From Escherichia phage ZCEC14, in the sequence record OP168898.1: 64,000 bases of DNA; one strand, written 5' to 3'. Positions 2,953-62,494 of this stretch are shown piece after piece. The translations under genes and the position numbers were made by a program. Position 1 is the first letter of the stretch. Each line of letters starts with the position of its first letter. The notes under the pieces are model-generated. The model did not search any database. It saw only the letters and a list, made by a program, of their open reading frames with translations, and was not told the origin of the DNA.

Positions 2953-3221
2953 TGTTTGTTGTTCACACTATTTATGAAAATGAAGGTAATACTACACGTG
3001 ATTACGGTCACGTAAATCAATTTTTTAGATGCAATCCAGAATTCCGAGCTCAAAAAGACGAACGAATTTTTAAAAAATGTGTGGAGCAAGGTTTCATTTA
3101 CGTCAAGCATTGGATGCAAGGAAATAAAGTTAGAACTACATATCATAGGTCTTTGACTGAGCTTAATGATGAATTGATTTATAATAGAGCTGTAAACCAA
3201 ACTCTAAAGGATGAACAATGA
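2952..3221 (+). CDS. Hypothetical protein (89 aa)
   Basis: ORF, translationally coupled to neighbours. Confidence 0.5.
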   Translation: MFVVHTIYENEGNTTRDYGHVNQFFRCNPEFRAQKDERIFKKCVEQGFIYVKHWMQGNKVRTTYHRSLTELNDELIYNRAVNQTLKDEQ

Positions 3222-4892: not shown

Positions 4893-4915
4893 GAATAAAC
4901 ACTAGAGAGGATATG

Positions 4916-7009
4916 ATGGAACTTATTACAGAATTATTTGACGAAGATACTACTCTTCCGATTACAAACTTAAATCCAAAGAAGAAAATACCGCAAATTT
5001 TTTCAGTTCATGTTGATGATGCAATTGAACAACCAGGCTTTCGTTTATGTACCTATACATCTGGAGGTGATACTAACCGTGATTTAAAGATGGGCGATAA
5101 AATGATGCACATTGTTCCTTTTACACTAACTGCTAAAGGTTCAATTGCTAAATTAAAAGGTCTCGGTCCAAGCCCAATTAATTACATCAATTCAGTTTTT
5201 ACTGTTGCAATGCAAACAATGCGTCAGTATAAAATTGATGCCTGTATGCTTCGTATTCTTAAGTCTAAAACTGCTGGTCAAGCTCGACAAATTCAAGTTA
5301 TTGCTGATAGACTTATCCGTAGTCGTTCAGGTGGCAGATACGTCCTTCTTAAGGAACTCTGGGACTATGATAAAAAGTATGCATATATTCTTATACATCG
5401 CAAAAATGTATCACTAGAAGACATTCCAGGAGTTCCGGAAATTAGTACCGAGCTCTTTACTAAAGTTGAATCGAAGGTCGGCGATGTTTATATCAATAAA
5501 GATACCGGAGCTCAAGTAACTAAAAATGAGGCAATTGCAGCATCTATTGCACAAGAAAATGATAAACGTTCTGACCAAGCTGTTATTGTTAAAGTTAAAA
5601 TTTCCCGTAGAGCAATTGCGCAAAGTCAATCATTAGAATCTTCTAGATTTGAAAGTGAATTATTCCAGAAGTATGAATCTACCGCAGCTAATTTTAATAA
5701 ACCTGCTACCGCTCCTTTAATTCCCGAAGCAGAAGAAATGAAGCTTGGAATTAATTCATTAGCTTCTAAAACTAAGGCAGCAAAAATTATTGCTGAAGGA
5801 ACTGCAAATGAACTTCACTATGACTATAAATTCTTTTCAAAAAGTGAGGTTGATGAAGTTTCTGAAAAAATTAAAGATGTAATTCTTAATGCGATTAAAA
5901 ATGAACCAACTACTTCAATAAAATGTTTAGAGAAATACGCAGCAGCTGTTAATAAATTCTTTGAAGAATATAAAGATAATTGGCTTGATAAACATAATAA
6001 AACCCGTAAAGGACAGCCAGATGAAGTCTGGGAAGAAATAACTAAAAATTCCTGGAACGCAGCAAAAACTAAATTCCTCAAACGAATGATTTATAGTTTT
6101 TCTGGAATTGGTGCAGGTCCAATGATTGATATTACTATTGCCCGTGATGGTTCTAAATATACTCCATCACAAAAGCGCGGCATTAGAGAATATTGTGGAT
6201 CAGGATATACTGACATCAATAATCTTCTTTTAGGCCGCTACAATCCAGAACGATATGATGTAATGAGTGAAAAAGAAATTGAATCTGCGATAAATAATTT
6301 AGATTCAGCTTTTGAAAATGGTGATCGTATACCAGAAGGCATTACAGTTTATCGTGCTCAAAGCATGACTGCTCCTATATACGAAGCACTAGTTAAAAAT
6401 AAAGTGTTCTATTTCAGAAATTTTGTATCTACTTCTTTAACTCCTATCATTTTTGGACGTTTTGGAATTACACATGCTGGTATCGGTCTTTTAGAACCAG
6501 AAGCTCGCAATGAATTAACAGTTGATAAAAATGAAGAAGGAATAACTATTAATCCAAACGAAATAAGAGCGTATAAAGAAAATCCTGAATACGTTAAAGT
6601 TCAAATAGGATGGGCAATTGATGGAGCTCATAAAGTTAATGTTGTATATCCAGGAAGTCTCGGAATAGCAACAGAAGCTGAAGTTATTCTACCGCGCGGA
6701 TTGATGGTCAAAGTTAATAAAATAACTGATGCTTCTAATAATGACGGAACAACATCTAATAATACAAAACTCATTCAAGCTGAAGTTATGACTACGGAAG
6801 AACTCACCGAATCAGTAATTTATGACGGTGACCGTCTAATGGAAACTGGCGAAGTAGTTGCAATGACAGGTGATATTGAAATAGAAGACAGAGTTGACTT
6901 TGCATCATTTGTTTCATCAAATGTTAAACAGAAAGTAGAATCATCTCTTGGAATTATTGCGTCTTGCATAGATATTACAAACATGCCTTACAAGTTCGTT
7001 CAAGGATAA
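4916..7009 (+). CDS. alt: Alt-like ADP-ribosyltransferase, copy 1 (697 aa from ATG 4916)
   Basis: N-terminus MELITELFDE (capsid-targeting/gp21-cleavage-like); C-terminal R...STS...EAE (VYRAQ, FVSTSL, EAEVILPRG) ART signature. Confidence 0.85.
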   Translation: MELITELFDEDTTLPITNLNPKKKIPQIFSVHVDDAIEQPGFRLCTYTSGGDTNRDLKMGDKMMHIVPFTLTAKGSIAKLKGLGPSPINYINSVFTVAMQTMRQYKIDACMLRILKSKTAGQARQIQVIADRLIRSRSGGRYVLLKELWDYDKKYAYILIHRKNVSLEDIPGVPEISTELFTKVESKVGDVYINKDTGAQVTKNEAIAASIAQENDKRSDQAVIVKVKISRRAIAQSQSLESSRFESELFQKYESTAANFNKPATAPLIPEAEEMKLGINSLASKTKAAKIIAEGTANELHYDYKFFSKSEVDEVSEKIKDVILNAIKNEPTTSIKCLEKYAAAVNKFFEEYKDNWLDKHNKTRKGQPDEVWEEITKNSWNAAKTKFLKRMIYSFSGIGAGPMIDITIARDGSKYTPSQKRGIREYCGSGYTDINNLLLGRYNPERYDVMSEKEIESAINNLDSAFENGDRIPEGITVYRAQSMTAPIYEALVKNKVFYFRNFVSTSLTPIIFGRFGITHAGIGLLEPEARNELTVDKNEEGITINPNEIRAYKENPEYVKVQIGWAIDGAHKVNVVYPGSLGIATEAEVILPRGLMVKVNKITDASNNDGTTSNNTKLIQAEVMTTEELTESVIYDGDRLMETGEVVAMTGDIEIEDRVDFASFVSSNVKQKVESSLGIIASCIDITNMPYKFVQG

Positions 7010-7012
7010 ATC

Positions 7013-9070
7013 ATGGAACTTATTACAGAATTATTTGACGGCGCTTCGGCGCCGGTTGTTAACTTAAATCCTAAGCATAAAATACCTCAAATTTTTGCTA
7101 TTCAAGCCGGCGAAGAAAGCGTGCTTCCTGGATTTAGATTTTGTACATACACCTCTGGTGGTGATACAAATAAAAACGTTAAGCCAGGTGATAAAATGAT
7201 GCATATCGTAATGATAGGTGTCAATGAGAAACTATCATTAGTTAAACTTAAAAACTTGGGTGGAAATCCAATTGGTGTCATTAATGCTGTTTTTGATACT
7301 GCTCTTCAAACAATGAAACAATATAAAATCGACGCATGCCTATTCCGCGTACTAAAAAGTAAAACAAATGGCGCAGCTCGTCAAATGCAAGTTATTGCTG
7401 ACCGTTTAGTACGTACTAAAGGAGCAGGTCGTTATGTTCTTTTAAAGGAAATCTGGGACTATGATAAAAAGTATGCATATATTATGGTTTACCGTAAAAA
7501 TGCCAATTTAGAAGACATTCCAGGTGTACCTCCTATTTCAACTGAGTTATTCACAAAAGTTGAATCGAAGGTCGGTGATGTTTATGTAGACGTTAAAACA
7601 GGTAATGCTGTTCCTAAAGCTGTCGCTGTTGCTGCTTCTATTGCTTTAGAAAATGATAAACGTACTGACCAAGCGGTTATTCAGAAAACTAAAATTAGTC
7701 GTCGATTAGCAGCGCAAGCTCAATATTCTACTGTCGATGCTTCACTTCAGGGTGATAGCTTCGCTGCCAAGAAATATCAAGAGTTTGAATCTAAAGTTCC
7801 GGTATATAAAGCAGAAGGACCAATGAACTCTGGCGTTATTCAGATTGGTTCAAACTTCAGCAAAGGAGCTATCGGTGGTATGAGGAGTGCTTCTCGTTTT
7901 AAATCTAACGATTATGAACTAGAAAACTTCCGAAATCATATTGCATTAGCCCATGCGCGTTTACGTGATCCATCTATCAAGTTGCAGAGCGATATAACAT
8001 ATCAAGGTTCTCAAGAATATTTAAAGAATAAAGAATTCTTTGATTATAAAACTGATAAAATTTTAAGCGATCTTGCTGATATTAATATTTCTAATAGCTT
8101 TGATGTTATTAAGAAAATTATCAATGATTTGGTTAAAGGTTCTAAAGCTACGCCAGATGAAAAGACAGCTATTATTCAATTTGTAATGAATGGCATTTAT
8201 AAATTGATTAATGAATCTGCTGCTCAGGCGTATGAATATGCAAGTACTGAAGTAACTCCAAAAGGATTAACTCAGGCTGAATCTGACGTAATTGAAGATT
8301 ATTGTGCTGATTCATATGTTGAAATGAACTCGTTCCTTTTGGGTAAACCAGATTCTACCCGTGAAGAATATATGGAACGAGCTATTAAACACATCGAGAC
8401 GTTGGATTCTGCCTTTGCCAAAGGATCAGTTCTTCCTCCAGGAACTACGCTTTATCGCGGACAAGAAGTTACATTTAAAACTTTGCGTCATAACATTGAA
8501 AATAAAATGTTCTATTTCAAGAACTTCGTATCCACATCGCTTAAACCAAATATCTTCGGTGAGCATGGTAAAAACTATATGGCTCTAGATGATTCCGGCG
8601 CAGTATTTTCTGGTGAAGGAGAAGGTTCCGTTGATGCAGAAGATTTGATGCATATGGGTAGTCATTCTACATATGCTAATGAAGATGCTGAAACTAGCGT
8701 GGGTATGGTAATTAAAGGAGCTGAACGAATCAAAGTTATCGTTCCAGGTCATTTATCAGGATTTCCATCAGAAGCTGAAGTTATTCTACCACGTGGAATT
8801 TTACTGAAGATTAATAAAGTAAGTACGTACTTTATGAAAGAAACTGCTTATAACAAGTATCTAATCGAAGGTACAATCGTTCCTCCTTCCGAACAATTAG
8901 AAGAATCGGTATATGATGGTGACCATCTGATGGAAACTGGTGAAGTTCGTCCAATGACTGGATTTAACCAATTCCTTGTAGAAGAATCAAAAGAAGAGGA
9001 AAACGAAGTTTCTCAAATCTTGGCTTCTTTGGTTAACATCAACGGAATGTCTAAAAAGTTCAAGATGTAG
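7013..9070 (+). CDS. Alt-like ADP-ribosyltransferase, copy 2 (685 aa), diverged paralog
   Basis: Same N-terminus MELITELFDG and same R/STS/EAEVILPRG motifs; middle region diverged from copy 1. Confidence 0.8.
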   Translation: MELITELFDGASAPVVNLNPKHKIPQIFAIQAGEESVLPGFRFCTYTSGGDTNKNVKPGDKMMHIVMIGVNEKLSLVKLKNLGGNPIGVINAVFDTALQTMKQYKIDACLFRVLKSKTNGAARQMQVIADRLVRTKGAGRYVLLKEIWDYDKKYAYIMVYRKNANLEDIPGVPPISTELFTKVESKVGDVYVDVKTGNAVPKAVAVAASIALENDKRTDQAVIQKTKISRRLAAQAQYSTVDASLQGDSFAAKKYQEFESKVPVYKAEGPMNSGVIQIGSNFSKGAIGGMRSASRFKSNDYELENFRNHIALAHARLRDPSIKLQSDITYQGSQEYLKNKEFFDYKTDKILSDLADINISNSFDVIKKIINDLVKGSKATPDEKTAIIQFVMNGIYKLINESAAQAYEYASTEVTPKGLTQAESDVIEDYCADSYVEMNSFLLGKPDSTREEYMERAIKHIETLDSAFAKGSVLPPGTTLYRGQEVTFKTLRHNIENKMFYFKNFVSTSLKPNIFGEHGKNYMALDDSGAVFSGEGEGSVDAEDLMHMGSHSTYANEDAETSVGMVIKGAERIKVIVPGHLSGFPSEAEVILPRGILLKINKVSTYFMKETAYNKYLIEGTIVPPSEQLEESVYDGDHLMETGEVRPMTGFNQFLVEESKEEENEVSQILASLVNINGMSKKFKM

Positions 9071-57248: not shown

Positions 57249-57282
57249 TGTTTACATACTGATGAGGTAGTGATACTATTAT
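57249..57282 (+). promoter_or_regulatory. Early promoter cassette (GTTTAC; stem gatgag/ctcatc around gtgatactatta)
   Basis: Shared motif family, upstream of 57310. Confidence 0.55.
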
Positions 57283-57309: not shown

Positions 57310-57618
57310 ATGAAAACATTTAAAGAATTTATCAATGAAGCGGCTGCGCCAAAGACATTCGTTATTAATACTCAGACGAGTCTTGACGATGAGTATGCAG
57401 AGGCAATTCTGAAGTCACTTGCTAAGAACGGCGTTGAAGTAATCGCTTCGGACTTTAAGAAAGGGGCTTCCGAGATGTTTATTTCTATAACTAAAGGATC
57501 TAAAGCTAAGATCAAATCATCATTCGGAGTTGCTCGTACCGATCAAATCGACAATCATGACTTTAAACAAACTGGCGTTAAACGGCAGAACACAATTGCA
57601 TCACGCGGAATAAAATAG
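57310..57618 (+). CDS. Internal-protein-like small basic protein (102 aa) with capsid-targeting-like N-terminus MKTFKEFINEA
   Basis: N-terminus resembles T4 IP capsid-targeting sequence (MKTYQEFIAEA as recalled) with an I-x-E gp21-cleavage-like site. Confidence 0.65.
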   Translation: MKTFKEFINEAAAPKTFVINTQTSLDDEYAEAILKSLAKNGVEVIASDFKKGASEMFISITKGSKAKIKSSFGVARTDQIDNHDFKQTGVKRQNTIASRGIK

Positions 57619-57686: not shown

Positions 57687-57909
57687 ATGAAAACATCTAA
57701 AGAATTTATTGTAGAAGCTAAAAGACGCGAAGACGAACTGCCTTTTGTTTCAAAAACCTTTGATGGAACATTGTCTGATTTTAAAAAATTCCTAATGATA
57801 AACTTGCTAAATTGGTTGGTTCTATCAGTGAAAAAGGTGGCAAGGTCACATTTTCTGCTCAAGGTGTTGCCAATCTTAAAAAACTTTTGAAAGCCGCTGG
57901 TGTTGAATA
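57687..57909 (+). CDS. Internal-protein-like ORF (MKTSKEFIVEA...) interrupted by a frameshift at an A6 run (57783-57788); continues in another frame to TAA 57907-57909
   Basis: With A7 instead of A6 the frame reads ...DFKKIPNDKLAKLVGSISEKGGKVTFSAQGVANLKKLLKAAGVE; the track ORF tail LMINLLNWLVLSV looks out-of-frame. Confidence 0.5.
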
Positions 57910-57912
57910 AAT

Positions 57913-57944
57913 CGTTTACATAGGGTTTTAGTTGTGATACTATT
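57913..57944 (+). promoter_or_regulatory. Early promoter cassette (GTTTAC; gtgatactattaccc)
   Basis: Near-identical to cassette at 57629. Confidence 0.55.
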
Positions 57945-58926: not shown

Positions 58927-58999
58927 TGGGAATTAGCCAAGTTGGTAAGGCACTGGATTTTGATTCCAGGATGCAAAGGTTCGAGTCCTTTATTCCCAG
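58927..58999 (+). tRNA. tRNA-Gln (anticodon UUG)
   Basis: Cloverleaf: acceptor tgggaat/attccca, anticodon loop ttttgat, T-arm ggttcgagtcc. Confidence 0.85.
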
Positions 59000-59000
59000 C

Positions 59001-59087
59001 GCGAGAATGGTCAAATTGGTAAAGGCACAGCACTTAAAATGCTGCGGAATGATTTCCTTGTGGGTTCGAGTCCCACTTCTCGCACCA
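59001..59087 (+). tRNA. tRNA-Leu (anticodon UAA), class II long variable arm, CCA encoded
   Basis: Acceptor gcgagaa/ttctcgc, anticodon stem cagca/tgctg with loop cttaaaa. Confidence 0.85.
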
Positions 59088-59092
59088 AATTT

Positions 59093-59166
<74 letters not shown>

Positions 59167-59176
59167 ATTTAATTTA

Positions 59177-59250
59177 CTCCGTGTAGCTCAGTTTGGTAGA
59201 GCGCCTGATTTGGGATCAGGAGGTCCAAGGTTCAAATCCTTGTATGGAGA
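59177..59250 (+). tRNA. tRNA-Pro (anticodon UGG)
   Basis: Anticodon stem cctga/tcagg, loop tttggga; T-arm ggttcaaatcc. Confidence 0.8.
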
Positions 59251-59252
59251 CT

Positions 59253-59342
59253 GGAGGCGTGGCAGAGTGGTTTAATGCACCGGTCTTGAAAACCGGCAGT
59301 CGCTCCGGCGACTCATAGGTTCAAATCCTATCGCCTCCGCCA
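59253..59342 (+). tRNA. tRNA-Ser (anticodon UGA), long variable arm
   Basis: Acceptor ggaggcg/cgcctcc, anticodon stem ccggt/accgg, loop cttgaaa. Confidence 0.85.
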
Positions 59343-59347
59343 GTTTT

Positions 59348-59423
59348 GCTGATTTAGCTCAGTAGGTAGAGCAACTCACTTGTAATGAGAAGGTCGGCGG
59401 TTCGATTCCGTCAATCAGCACCA
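59348..59423 (+). tRNA. tRNA-Thr (anticodon UGU)
   Basis: Acceptor gctgatt/aatcagc, anticodon loop cttgtaa. Confidence 0.85.
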
Positions 59424-59424
59424 A

Positions 59425-59499
59425 GGCCCTGTAGCTGGAAGGTTCAAGCAAGCGACTCATAATCGCCAGATGGTGGTTCAATTCCACCCAGGGCCACCA
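59425..59499 (+). tRNA. tRNA with CAU anticodon (Ile2-type if lysidine-modified, otherwise Met)
   Basis: Acceptor ggccctg/cagggcc, anticodon loop ctcataa. Confidence 0.75.
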
Positions 59500-59511
59500 A
59501 ATTATGAATTA

Positions 59512-59598
59512 GGGGAGTTATCCCGTAGAGGTAGCGGTGTGGACTGTAAATCCATTGTCATTGCGACTCGGGTGGTTCGACTCCATCACTCCCCACCA
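59512..59598 (+). tRNA. tRNA-Tyr (anticodon GUA), long variable arm
   Basis: Acceptor ggggagt/actcccc, anticodon stem tgga/tcca, loop ctgtaaa. Confidence 0.75.
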
Positions 59599-59602
59599 AT
59601 TT

Positions 59603-59677
59603 GGATGTGTAGCTCAATGGCAGAGCGATCGCCTGTTAAGCGATTGGTTATAGGTTCGAATCCTATCACGTCCGCCA
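59603..59677 (+). tRNA. tRNA-Asn (anticodon GUU)
   Basis: Acceptor ggatgtg/cacgtcc (G-U pair), anticodon loop ctgttaa, T-arm ggttcgaatcc. Confidence 0.75.
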
Positions 59678-59681
59678 AATC

Positions 59682-59757
59682 CGAGGCATAGCTCAGAAGG
59701 AAGAGCAAGGACCTTCTAAGTCCTGGGTCGTAGGTTCGATCCCTACTGCCTCGACCA
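59682..59757 (+). tRNA. tRNA-Arg (anticodon UCU)
   Basis: Acceptor cgaggca/tgcctcg, anticodon stem ggacc/gtcc, loop ttctaag. Confidence 0.8.
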
Positions 59758-59775: not shown

Positions 59776-60126
59776 ATGAAAGGTAATGTTTATTTAGTAG
59801 TTCATGATTTAACATTCTATTTTAATCATAATGATACTGTTATTTCTGAACGTGTAATTAATTTACTTTATCAGCATGCAGATTATGTTTATGTTGAAAA
59901 CGAATTTGGACATTGGCAATTTATTAAAAATCGTTCATTTGGTTTAGATGGTTACGAATATTTTGAACGTAAAGACCTTTTAGATAAAATTCCGTTATCT
60001 ACACAATATCAAAATCATAAGTCTTTATATAAATGTCGGCTAATTCGAAATGCTGAATCTGCGTATGAAGCAATTGATTTATGGCGTAAACGCCGTGAAC
60101 AGATTGATGCTTTAAAAGAATATTAA
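59776..60126 (+). CDS. Hypothetical protein (116 aa)
   Basis: ORF with RBS gaggaaaatATG directly after tRNA cluster. Confidence 0.55.
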   Translation: MKGNVYLVVHDLTFYFNHNDTVISERVINLLYQHADYVYVENEFGHWQFIKNRSFGLDGYEYFERKDLLDKIPLSTQYQNHKSLYKCRLIRNAESAYEAIDLWRKRREQIDALKEY

Positions 60127-60465
60127 GAAACCGGGTCGCTACCGGTAAGTCGTCGGACTGATGTTCCCTGAGTAAGGACTAGCATTAACAAATCTTTGCG
60201 ATTGGTTAATGCCCCCTTACATCACAGCAGAAACGGCGCACCGAATTATCGATTCGAGGAAATATCTTTGCCGTAAGCCGAGTAGCGTTTTTGACGGAAC
60301 GTTCGGATATGGTCGAGATATGGCCTTTTAAAAATATTGAGTAGCGTCAACTGCTTAATAACCGGGTTCGAATCCCGGCGTTTCGTACAAACACTTGCCT
60401 TAGCAGGTGGAACCCCGACAAGGTTGCCGCAAGGCTTAGCCCCGACCGAAAGGTTGGGGCTTTTT
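60127..60465 (+). ncRNA. Structured non-coding region, candidate stable small RNA(s) analogous to T4 rnaC/rnaD, with tRNA-like T-arm and terminal hairpin+T-run
   Basis: GC-rich, stop-rich; accgggttcgaatcccggc T-arm-like element (60361-60380); terminator agccccgacc-gaaa-ggttggggc-ttttt at 60436-60465. Confidence 0.4.
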
Positions 60466-60555
60466 AGTTTGAATCATATAGAGAATGCTGTTACGGATAA
60501 TAACAAAGTAATAAATAATTAATAACCAACCGATAAATTATTTCAAGGATTTTAA

Positions 60556-61119
60556 ATGAAAACCTATGCCGAATTTTTAACCGAAGCAGCAAAATTACCA
60601 TCTGAAGCAGATCTTACTAAAGTATTCTTCCAATTGGACCCCAAAGACCGTGGTGATTTTCTTAAGTGGAAAGCTAAAGCTATTGAAATGTATAACATTG
60701 ATAATAGTTCTTTTACGATGAGTCAAGAAAATAAATTCAATAAAGCATTTTTCAAAATTTCTAAGAAATTGGCATCTGGCACTCAGGTTCCTAAATCTGC
60801 CTTAGCTACTCCTGAACGTGCACCTGTTAAAATTTCTAAGAATATGTTTGACACTAAAAAATATGTCAATGCTTTGAATAAAGCTCTTGATGCATTGGAT
60901 GATGCAAAGAAGGCAGCTCGTGATCTTCAAGACGTGTACACCGATTTTGATCGTAAAACTAAAGGTTCTATTTCAAATAGCGAACGCAATAGTGTAAGTG
61001 TTTATTCCGATAGCCTTGATGTTCTTGGCGATGCGTATACTGAAATTAAAAATCGTATTAACACTGCATCTAAGCTAAAAGCTGCTGCCGAAGCTATAAT
61101 AACTAAACTAGGTAAATAA
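60556..61119 (+). CDS. Internal-protein-like protein (187 aa) with capsid-targeting-like N-terminus MKTYAEFLTEA
   Basis: N-terminus close to T4 IP capsid-targeting sequence; size similar to IPIII (about 194 aa as recalled). Confidence 0.65.
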   Translation: MKTYAEFLTEAAKLPSEADLTKVFFQLDPKDRGDFLKWKAKAIEMYNIDNSSFTMSQENKFNKAFFKISKKLASGTQVPKSALATPERAPVKISKNMFDTKKYVNALNKALDALDDAKKAARDLQDVYTDFDRKTKGSISNSERNSVSVYSDSLDVLGDAYTEIKNRINTASKLKAAAEAIITKLGK

Positions 61120-61275
61120 TTTTAAATCCCTATCTAAATGATAGGGCTTTTTGGTATCTAGGCCTTTCTGGACCTCTCTAGGCATCATTTAGTTTCTACC
61201 CTTTATAATATATTATCCTATCTTTTAATTGCCCCTCCCTGCTCTAGAATTCCCTAAAATTTTTTTCACAAAACG

Positions 61276-61308
61276 GTTTACATCCCTGTTCTTCCATGGT
61301 ACTATACA
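61276..61308 (+). promoter_or_regulatory. Early promoter cassette (GTTTAC; ccatggtactatac)
   Basis: Shares leader caactatcaactactga and ggagaataaaATG with other cassettes. Confidence 0.5.
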
Positions 61309-61348
61309 ACTATCAACTACTGATACAGAAAACAACTTGGAGAATAAA

Positions 61349-61612
61349 ATGGATAATTACGGCGAACTGTTCAACTTCTTTATGAAATGCGTTTCAGAAG
61401 ATTTCGGTCGTACAGTGAATGATATTAAAGTTATCGGTCCTGACCATCCGATGTTTGAAACTTACGCAGTAATGGGTAATGAAGACGGTCAGTGGTATAC
61501 TGTAAAGGTTGTGATTAACATGTTCACTGCTGAAGGTTATGTTAAACTGTCTTCTAAAGTTTACCATGATAACGATGAAATCGCAGAAGAATATTTCAAT
61601 AATATGAAATAA
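61349..61612 (+). CDS. Hypothetical protein (87 aa from ATG 61349; track ORF start 61229 runs through the promoter)
   Basis: RBS ggagaataaaATG at 61349. Confidence 0.55.
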   Translation: MDNYGELFNFFMKCVSEDFGRTVNDIKVIGPDHPMFETYAVMGNEDGQWYTVKVVINMFTAEGYVKLSSKVYHDNDEIAEEYFNNMK

Positions 61613-61680
61613 TTGTGTACAAACACCAAGGATGGTGTTATTATAGACTTATCAAAACAAATACAGAAACGGAGAAATAA

Positions 61681-61857
61681 ATGACTACTTTAATTATTTG
61701 GTTTGACGAAAATGAAGAAACATACTGCGTGAACATTGGCGAAAGTCCAATGCCAGAATTTGAATCTTCAGATAAAAACTCGGTTGTATCTTGGGCTGAA
61801 GGTTATAAAGCAGCAAAAGGCGATGTTGAAATAGTTTACAAACTATCCGGAGTATAA
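61681..61857 (+). CDS. Hypothetical small protein (58 aa), not in ORF track
   Basis: ATG with RBS acggagaaataaATG; translation MTTLIIWFDENEETYCVNIGESPMPEFESSDKNSVVSWAEGYKAAKGDVEIVYKLSGV. Confidence 0.5.
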   Translation: MTTLIIWFDENEETYCVNIGESPMPEFESSDKNSVVSWAEGYKAAKGDVEIVYKLSGV

Positions 61858-61900
61858 TACTCTCATGGATTTTAAATTTTAATTAACCTAAGGAAATACT

Positions 61901-62494
61901 ATGAACACACTGAAGAAAATTGTTGAGTTTATTCGCACTAAACTTGGTTCTGCTATGGCTAAAAATCTGTCTGTTGAAGAACAGTATACTGCCGCAGCAG
62001 CAAAACTGCTTGATAAAATTAAAGACCTAAAAACTGCTTCTGTTAAATCTATTAATGAAGAAAAGCGTATTCGTGAACTTATCGTTGAAAAGAATAAGCA
62101 GGCCGAATCAAAAGAGCGTGAAATTCGCAAGCTTCTTTCCGAAGGTCAAGATGTAACAATGCATGCTAAACTCGGTTTGCTATATCGTCGAACAGCTGAA
62201 CAGTTGACTACTAAAGCTGATGGTTATGCTGAAATGCGAATTGAAATCGCCAAGAAAGTAGTTGAGTTAGATGATGCTCGTCAAGAACTTGCAGTTAAAT
62301 TGGAATATATCCGTGAAACTCGTGCAGCAAATGCCCTTGGAATTAGTACTGCCGATGATGTAGTTGAAATTGCAGCACTGACTAAGGTTGATATTGAAGA
62401 TACCCTTGCTCGAGTTGAAACCTTTAACGGTAATATTTCTGGGGTTGAAACTACCTCTGCCGATGTTCAGGAATACATTAATTCTCTGAAATAA
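61901..62494 (+). CDS. Hypothetical alpha-helical protein (197 aa); N-terminus [10 protein letters not shown] has an I-x-E site
   Basis: ORF with RBS ctaaggaaatactATG; helix-favouring composition. Confidence 0.6.

Follow-up and report, generated by a model that had tools for sequence, protein, structure and literature searches.

Genomic Context

The sequence analyzed here is a 64,000-nucleotide stretch of the Escherichia phage ZCEC14 genome (record OP168898.1; hereafter, the window), in which two open reading frames (ORFs) downstream of the tRNA genes had previously been proposed to encode proteins packaged in the phage head. We refer to these as ORF A (60556..61119, 187 a.a.) and ORF B (61901..62494, 197 a.a.). 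Both were found at these coordinates with the N-termini originally read, and both do lie beyond the tRNA genes, a block of 10 of which occupies positions 58927-59757. From the analyses below, we consider ORF A, which is carried on a terminator-bounded cassette, probably to be an internal protein of the T-even class that had so far gone unannotated, and ORF B, which is the T4 gene e.6, to encode a protein that is probably not packaged via the capsid-targeting sequence (CTS) of the T4 internal proteins.

The window is a segment of a Tequatrovirus (T4/RB14-like) genome, oriented in reverse of the standard T4 map, and the 2.3 kb surrounding ORF A and e.6 share 96–97% identity with phages such as IME340 and RB14. 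The gene order runs from gp2, gp3, gp1, 57A, and 57B through two CTS-bearing ORFs (57310 and 57687) to tRNA.4, tRNA.3, and tRNA.2, followed by the ten tRNA genes, a 116-a.a. ORF, and the stable RNA genes rnaD and rnaC. ORF A comes next, and after it e.8, a 58-a.a. ORF, e.6, e.5, e.4, and e.3.

The Leader of ORF A

The N-terminus of ORF A (MKTYAEFLTEA) agrees at 8 of 11 residues with that of the T4 internal proteins IPII and IPIII, both of which start MKTYQEFIAEA, and the near-identity to the T4 targeting sequence noted in the original prediction is thus borne out. Mutational mapping of the IPIII CTS attributed targeting mainly to residues 4 and 7 and processing to residues 8 and 10, according to the passage of PMC9026906 that summarizes Mullaney and Black (1996). 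All four mapped positions are retained in ORF A: an aromatic residue (Tyr4) and Phe7, for targeting, stand at the exact N-terminus, and Leu8 and Glu10, for cleavage by gp21, form an L-x-E motif at residues 8–10 that is followed by a small residue (L8-T9-E10|A11), at which cleavage is predicted only. The predicted capsid-targeting propeptide would comprise codons 1–10 (MKTYAEFLTE; 60556..60585, + strand), with the predicted gp21 cut after Glu10 (L-T-E|A) giving a mature N-terminus at Ala11 (AAKLPSEADLTK...). A Shine-Dalgarno sequence (AAGGA; 60545..60549, + strand), read directly from the sequence, lies 6 nt before the ATG.

Such a leader is rare in the window. The pattern MKT[YF].EF has two matches when the 64 kb are translated in all six frames, and each coincides exactly with the start of an ORF (57310 and 60556); ~0.0015 matches would be expected by chance. 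We also built a position-specific scoring matrix (PSSM) on the leaders of ten other internal proteins, leaving ORF A out, and applied it to 482 ATG-started ORFs. The ORF A leader came second among these with 20.9 bits, the background being −14.7 ± 6.3, and the top score beyond the three CTS-type ORFs (57310, 60556, and 57687) was 3.3.

The Predicted Mature Protein and Its Family

Once processed, ORF A would yield a predicted mature internal protein of 177 a.a. (60586..61119, + strand, including the stop codon), with a predicted mass of 19.7 kDa and an isoelectric point (pI) of 9.5 (9.54). The size of ORF A had been likened to that of IPIII, and rightly so (187 vs. 193 a.a.); the pI of full-length T4 IPIII is likewise 9.5. 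ORF A is, then, a small basic protein, with a mature part unrelated to IPII or IPIII and a gene situated in a variable locus. The AlphaFold (AF2) model is all-alpha, with a floppy leader (predicted local distance difference test, pLDDT, of 42 for residues 1–10), an N-terminal helical domain (residues ~17–73), a disordered linker (residues 74–95) that is Pro/Ala/Lys-rich and longer in distant relatives, and a long C-terminal helical hairpin (residues 101–186). Comparison of this model with the PDB using Foldseek gave a best E-value of 0.34, with matches mostly to ferritin-like helical bundles that we regard as meaningless, and Pfam returned sub-threshold noise only, with no domain.

The features shared with IPIII (length class, charge, and leader) could be taken to mean that ORF A is a relocated, diverged orthologue of IPIII, or of IPII, retaining the roles of IPIII as a head assembly aid and an inhibitor of ECOR17-type GmrSD, the more so as RB14, the closest annotated relative, has neither ipII nor ipIII annotated beside gene e. 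ORF A and IPII/IPIII have in common the L/I-x-E gp21 site at residues 8–10 (MKTYAEFLTE|A vs. MKTYQEFIAE|A) and are small, basic products of non-essential accessory genes in variable regions. However, alignment to T4 IPII and IPIII, which had been put forward as a check on the original prediction, recovered the shared leader only: BLASTP similarity to either protein stops at residue 12, and ORF A is therefore not their homologue. No IPIII-like protein appeared when 1.84 billion representatives were searched exhaustively with HMMER, PHROGs assigns ORF A to a different family, the function of which is not known, and the genome position differs, with ORF A lying between rnaC and e.8 and the IPII/IPIII genes between denV and e. 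We consider orthology to IPIII or IPII highly unlikely.

The family to which ORF A does belong is phrog_2280 (PHROGs, function unknown), matched over the full length with an E-value of 2.9e-53. ORF A is the gene annotated as RB14ncORF136c (ACP30780.1; 'hypothetical protein, similar to RB69ORF148c and RB69ORF149c'), from which it shows no difference as a gene and which occupies the same position in a DNA region of 96.1% identity. It is present in 164 phage records, with an identity of at least 96% in 163 and 86% in one. No internal- or virion-protein label was attached to this RB14ncORF136c/RB69ORF148c-149c family in the record annotations that we saw or in PHROGs, and the RB69 arabinosylation paper makes no mention of ORF148 or ORF149 and offers nothing on virion composition.

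Beyond these close relatives, word-indexed and exhaustive protein searches with ORF A, covering the representative proteins and the phage collection, recovered one distant family and nothing else. The exhaustive HMMER scan of the 1.84 billion representatives gave a single true distant relative, P0062 (31% identity, E = 2e-6), which led to a family in Mosigvirus and in T4-like phages of Enterobacter, Klebsiella, Serratia, and Kosakonia. The mature parts of these distant relatives are only 20–30% identical (up to 31%), with the C-terminal domain even exchanged in some, yet the leader follows a common pattern, M-x-x-[YF]-x-[EQD]-[FI]-[LIT]-x-E-[AS], in which Glu10 is invariant. Several also display a second I-x-E-A a few residues on, reminiscent of the longer IPI-type leader. 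Internal proteins have been described as lacking homology apart from the leader (PMC12373910; PMC3012670). The retention of the leader across these relatives, despite the divergence of the body, points to selection acting on the leader as such.

The Cassette between rnaC and e.8

ORF A is carried, along with its own terminator, on a 687-bp cassette (60466..61152, + strand) that is missing in T4, as determined from a three-way alignment of the window, T4, and the Yersinia phage fD1. On its upstream side lie rnaD and rnaC, the genes for the 'species 2' and 'species 1' stable RNAs of T4 (60127..60466, + strand; T4 annotation), which are near-identical in the window, T4, and fD1 as far as the rnaC terminator. 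This intrinsic terminator (stem at 60438-60461 plus T-run, from the terminator scan) marks the upstream cassette boundary. The insertion point falls between the rnaC terminator (GGGGCTTTTT) and GGTATCTAGGCCTTTC, which adjoins the terminator in T4. In T4, GGTATCTAAGCC... comes immediately after the terminator, with e.8 next; in the window, T4-like sequence picks up again with GGTATCTAGGCC past a second intrinsic terminator (CCCTATCTAAATGATAGGG plus CTTTTT; 61128..61152, + strand) that closes the cassette. As CTTTTT is repeated at both ends, the cassette edges are ambiguous by a few bases. Rfam (E ≤ 0.1) reported tRNAs only in the region and no family for the rnaC/rnaD stretch, so these two genes were named via the T4 alignment. 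Two mechanically called ORFs, 60209..60331 (40 a.a.) and 60337..60522 (61 a.a.), fall wholly or partly inside the rnaD and rnaC genes and were dismissed as spurious.

A candidate late promoter, AATAAATA (60510..60517, + strand), was picked up 39 nt upstream of the ORF A ATG in a scan allowing one mismatch and is a 7/8 match to the T4 late-promoter box TATAAATA; the phage JLBYU22 has GATAAATA where ORF A has AATAAATA. No sigma-70-like site was found between the rnaC terminator and the ATG. In T4, ipII and ipIII likewise have no late box immediately upstream and show sigma-70-like boxes instead, and the type of promoter therefore cannot decide whether ORF A is packaged.

At the same site, fD1 carries a different ORF of 157 a.a., g140 (RB32ORF132c), followed by a copy of the rnaC terminator. 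This gene resembles ORF A in its insertion site, its CTS-like leader (MKSYTQFLNEA), its pI of 9.5, and its terminator-bounded cassette, and differs in having an exact TATAAATA late promoter, in its number of phage records (512 vs. 164 for ORF A), and in its weak detection in fD1 particle preparations (fD1 study, a non-specific particle proteome). No likeness between the mature sequences of g140 and ORF A was noticed, although the two were not directly compared. JLBYU22 contains both genes in tandem, the g140-type gene first and ORF A second, with a terminator after each. The rnaC-e.8 junction, empty in T4, with one such gene in fD1 and two in JLBYU22, is therefore polymorphic for CTS-gene cassettes.

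We also observed that the fD1 and JLBYU22 cassettes end in a near-copy of the rnaC terminator (AGCCCCGAC[AC][GA]AAAGGTTGGGGCTTTTT). The organization of the locus suggests that cassettes are inserted, deleted, and stacked in tandem via recombination between the terminator repeats.

The internal proteins IPI (Ip1), Ip4, and Ip5 follow the same principle as ORF A, namely a conserved leader, unrelated mature proteins, and hypervariable loci. IPI and Ip5 differ from ORF A in their longer leader (~19 residues), which is cleaved at I-T-E|A, whereas Ip4 (MKTYQEFITEAA...) has the short leader type, as does ORF A. Unlike ORF A, these proteins are encoded at the 57B-tRNA.4 locus or next to gene e. The classical polymorphic ip loci, with Ip4 and Ip5 variants, were reportedly described by Repoila and colleagues in 1994.

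Probable Packaging and Proposed Function of ORF A

The proposal that both ORFs encode packaged proteins holds for ORF A, insofar as its CTS, its L-x-E|A site, its small basic product, and its variable locus make packaging probable from the sequence, and is not supported for ORF B, as detailed below. Several observations weigh against our reading of ORF A. No virion proteomics or N-terminal mapping of ORF A or a close homologue was found in the literature, and the region upstream of ORF A has no exact TATAAATA late promoter, only AATAAATA. The mature protein is free of internal [LI]xE motifs, but this is not significant (0.9 expected, P = 0.37) and the distant relatives have several internal sites; avoidance of such gp21 motifs, tried as a prohead signature for ORF A, does not discriminate. 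Moreover, an anti-defense function can be argued by analogy alone, given that the mature protein has no recognizable fold or family.

The lack of proteomic evidence for packaging and of a perfect late promoter would agree with ORF A being a cytoplasmic, non-packaged protein whose leader is a non-functional relic of recombination through conserved CTS-coding DNA. We find this improbable, since the four functionally mapped CTS positions are all intact, the leader is kept in relatives of which only 20–30% of the mature sequence is identical, and the gene is so closely conserved across its carrier genomes (>96% in all but the one record at 86%).

If ORF A is instead an internal protein, as we favor, MKTYAEFLTE would act as the capsid-targeting sequence that docks the protein on the scaffolding core during prohead assembly. 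The prohead protease gp21 would then cut after Glu10, with the basic, all-helical, 19.7-kDa protein staying in the head together with the DNA, and at the next infection the protein would be injected with the DNA. Internal proteins act before any phage gene is expressed, as they are delivered with the DNA. The three internal proteins of T4 each inhibit a different type IV (GmrSD) restriction enzyme (PMC12373910), and with Ip1-3 all being GmrSD inhibitors, each new CTS-bearing family becomes a candidate anti-defense protein. Ip2 and Ip3 inhibit specific GmrSD enzymes (PMC12373910). By analogy with Ip1, Ip2, and Ip3, and speculatively, ORF A would most likely neutralize a first-line host defense, one candidate being a GmrSD-like restriction enzyme of a variant type IV kind.

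The site where the rnaC terminator adjoins e.8 in T4 may also represent a third, cassette-type internal-protein locus of Tequatroviruses, where ORF A/RB14ncORF136c and g140/RB32ORF132c would serve as injected inhibitors of host defenses with no known phage counter-measure, for example, GmrSD subtypes beyond those of Ip1-3. We place the chances of this somewhat short of even. In the records listed, both ORF A (164 phage genomes) and g140 (512) bear the annotation 'hypothetical'. As internal-protein candidates, with rnaC-e.8 as a swap site, they provide concrete genes for Tequatrovirus host-range and phage-therapy studies. ORF A is probably a new and so far unannotated example of a familiar kind of protein and reveals no new mechanism.

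ORF B Is the Conserved T4 Gene e.6

ORF B (61901..62494, + strand) is 100% identical to the T4 gene e.6 (msp3, 197 a.a.). The I-x-E motif that had drawn attention to it is present, as I-V-E at residues 7–9, but is no more than chance would give, with [LI]-x-E starting at residues 5–9 in 11 of the 61 window ORFs of at least 100 a.a. These 11 include a 486-a.a. ORF at 3218, which from its size and map position we take to be the likely DNA ligase gp30, together with gp21 substrates or head proteins, presumably Alt, gp24, gp21, and gp22 by their size, position, and N-terminal sequence.

The remaining properties of e.6 are not those of a CTS-bearing protein. Its leader scored −9.7 bits in the PSSM (rank 97 of 482), within the background, and carries Leu4, Lys6, and Ile7, with no aromatic residue at position 4 and no Phe7. 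The processing site is not conserved either, with Glu9 replaced in 9 of 27 homologues (identity down to 47%), in which the tripeptide reads VAF, WKF, VDF, LNF, AQF, LTF, or IQF. The protein is near-neutral (pI 6.06) and has six [LI]xE motifs in all, five of them beyond I-V-E. Rather than a basic, variable accessory protein, e.6 is found in 1099 phage records that span several genera of T4-like phages, those infecting Aeromonas and Klebsiella among them, and this conservation is the opposite of that seen in the hypervariable internal proteins. In time-resolved omics of T4, e.6 falls in the 'early RNA, middle protein' class, as opposed to 'early RNA, late protein' for ipI, ipII, and ipIII (PMC9697503). 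PHROGs assigns e.6 to a family of unknown function, and Pfam returned sub-threshold noise, with nothing at E ≤ 1.

An e.6 homologue, g137 (99.5% identical), is nonetheless listed as 'phage particle-associated' in the fD1 study, which counts against our view of this gene. Along with the existence of the I-V-E motif, this entry would be expected if both ORFs were packaged, with e.6 entering the head by a non-canonical leader (I-V-E, residues 7–9). The fD1 particle list, however, holds 137 of the 277 phage proteins as well as 672 host proteins, and its breadth and the inclusion of DenV, lysozyme e, NudE, and thymidine kinase mean that it does not tell virion from non-virion proteins. The leader score at background level, the missing Tyr/Phe4 and Phe7, the non-conserved Glu9, the near-neutral pI, and the middle protein class in T4 all speak against packaging, and the five further [LI]xE motifs would expose e.6 to gp21 cleavage. 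To our knowledge, the components listed over decades of biochemical work on the T4 head are IPI-III, Alt, gp67*, gp68*, and gp22 or gp21 fragments, and not e.6. We consider packaging of e.6 highly unlikely. It is a conserved helical-hairpin protein and not an internal protein, and the I-V-E at its N-terminus is a coincidence; a chance tripeptide drew attention to what is an ordinary, conserved gene of T4.

A tentative lead as to what e.6 might do instead comes from its predicted structure. The AF2 model (pLDDT 73.7) comprises a helix at residues 2–22, a long hairpin (residues 25–80 and 86–145), and short C-terminal helices, a predicted architecture, with an N-terminal amphipathic helix and a long hairpin, that may resemble that of PspA/Vipp1 (ESCRT-III superfamily). 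The N-terminal segment is modelled, at low confidence (pLDDT ~41–42, residues 1–20), as the first helix of the hairpin fold. In a Foldseek search of the PDB with this model, the top eight matches were all Vipp1/PspA (E-values of 1e-3 to 1e-2, probability 1.0), and archaeal CdvB2 ranked next. A comparison of the e.6 profile with the PDB gave Vipp1 matches that are in register but weak (E-values of 1.7–4, residues 4–141 vs. 4–143). From these models, e.6 might be a PspA/Vipp1/ESCRT-III-type or BAR-like protein that binds or remodels membranes, with the amphipathic helix at its N-terminus attaching to the membrane instead of directing the protein to the capsid. No significant sequence or profile match to the PspA_IM30 or Snf7 families was obtained in Pfam (none at E ≤ 1) or in the Vipp1 comparison, aligning the e.6 profile with an approximate sequence of E. 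coli PspA in hhalign gave an insignificant probability of 0.4%, and nothing was found in the literature on e.6 with T4 or on phage PspA or ESCRT-III. We regard this role as possible, if on balance rather unlikely.

Other CTS-Bearing ORFs and Alt

The original prediction further held that, with two Alt copies and the two ORFs at 57310 and 57687, this genome may package an unusually large set of injected proteins. The two Alt copies are indeed present, as tandem ORFs of 698 a.a. (4913..7009) and 685 a.a. (7013..9070) that share 41% identity from end to end. Each begins with (M)MELITELFD, a sequence that we take to match the gp21-processed N-terminus of T4 Alt.

An unusually large set, however, is not supported. 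Alongside Alt, T4 makes three internal proteins, RB14 carries IpI, Ip4, and Ip5 in addition to the ORF A homologue, and JLBYU22 has two CTS genes at the rnaC-e.8 locus alone. In addition, one of the two ORFs that had been counted, ORF 57687..57908 (MKTSKEFIVEA..., 67 a.a. as called), is frameshifted here in an A6 run at ~57782-57787. Restoring one A gives a 74-a.a. protein that is 100% identical to the intact VEc74 gene and shares 70–93% identity with proteins in ~100 other phages, labelled 'internal virion protein' in some records. The frameshift is either a genuine pseudogene mutation or a homopolymer sequencing error.

Neighbouring Features

Four near-identical early-type promoters (57251..57279, 57915..57943, 61277..61305, and 61616..61644), each with TTTACA or TGTACA, a 17-nt spacing, and TG-n-TACTAT or TATTAT, precede ORF 57310, tRNA.4, e.8, and ORF 61681, respectively. 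The presence of such a promoter at the ip gene 57310 (the Ip5 position) fits the 'early RNA, late protein' behavior of the T4 ip genes. Upstream of e.6, no exact TATAAATA was found.

The tRNA block (58927-59757) holds ten genes, compared with eight in T4, the extras being Tyr-GTA and Asn-GTT. Its 'Met-CAT' gene is a tRNA-Ile in the RB14 and T4 annotation, and segB, the homing endonuclease gene by which the tRNA cluster of T4 is split, is missing here. After tRNA-Arg lies the 116-a.a. ORF (59776..60126; phrog_3355, function unknown), where RB14 has no annotated gene. Finally, a 58-a.a. ORF (61681..61857; RB14ncORF134c, phrog_5461) stands in place of the unrelated T4 e.7 (111 a.a.) and has its own sigma-70-like promoter with an extended −10 (61616-61644), representing another small module swap in the e.x region.

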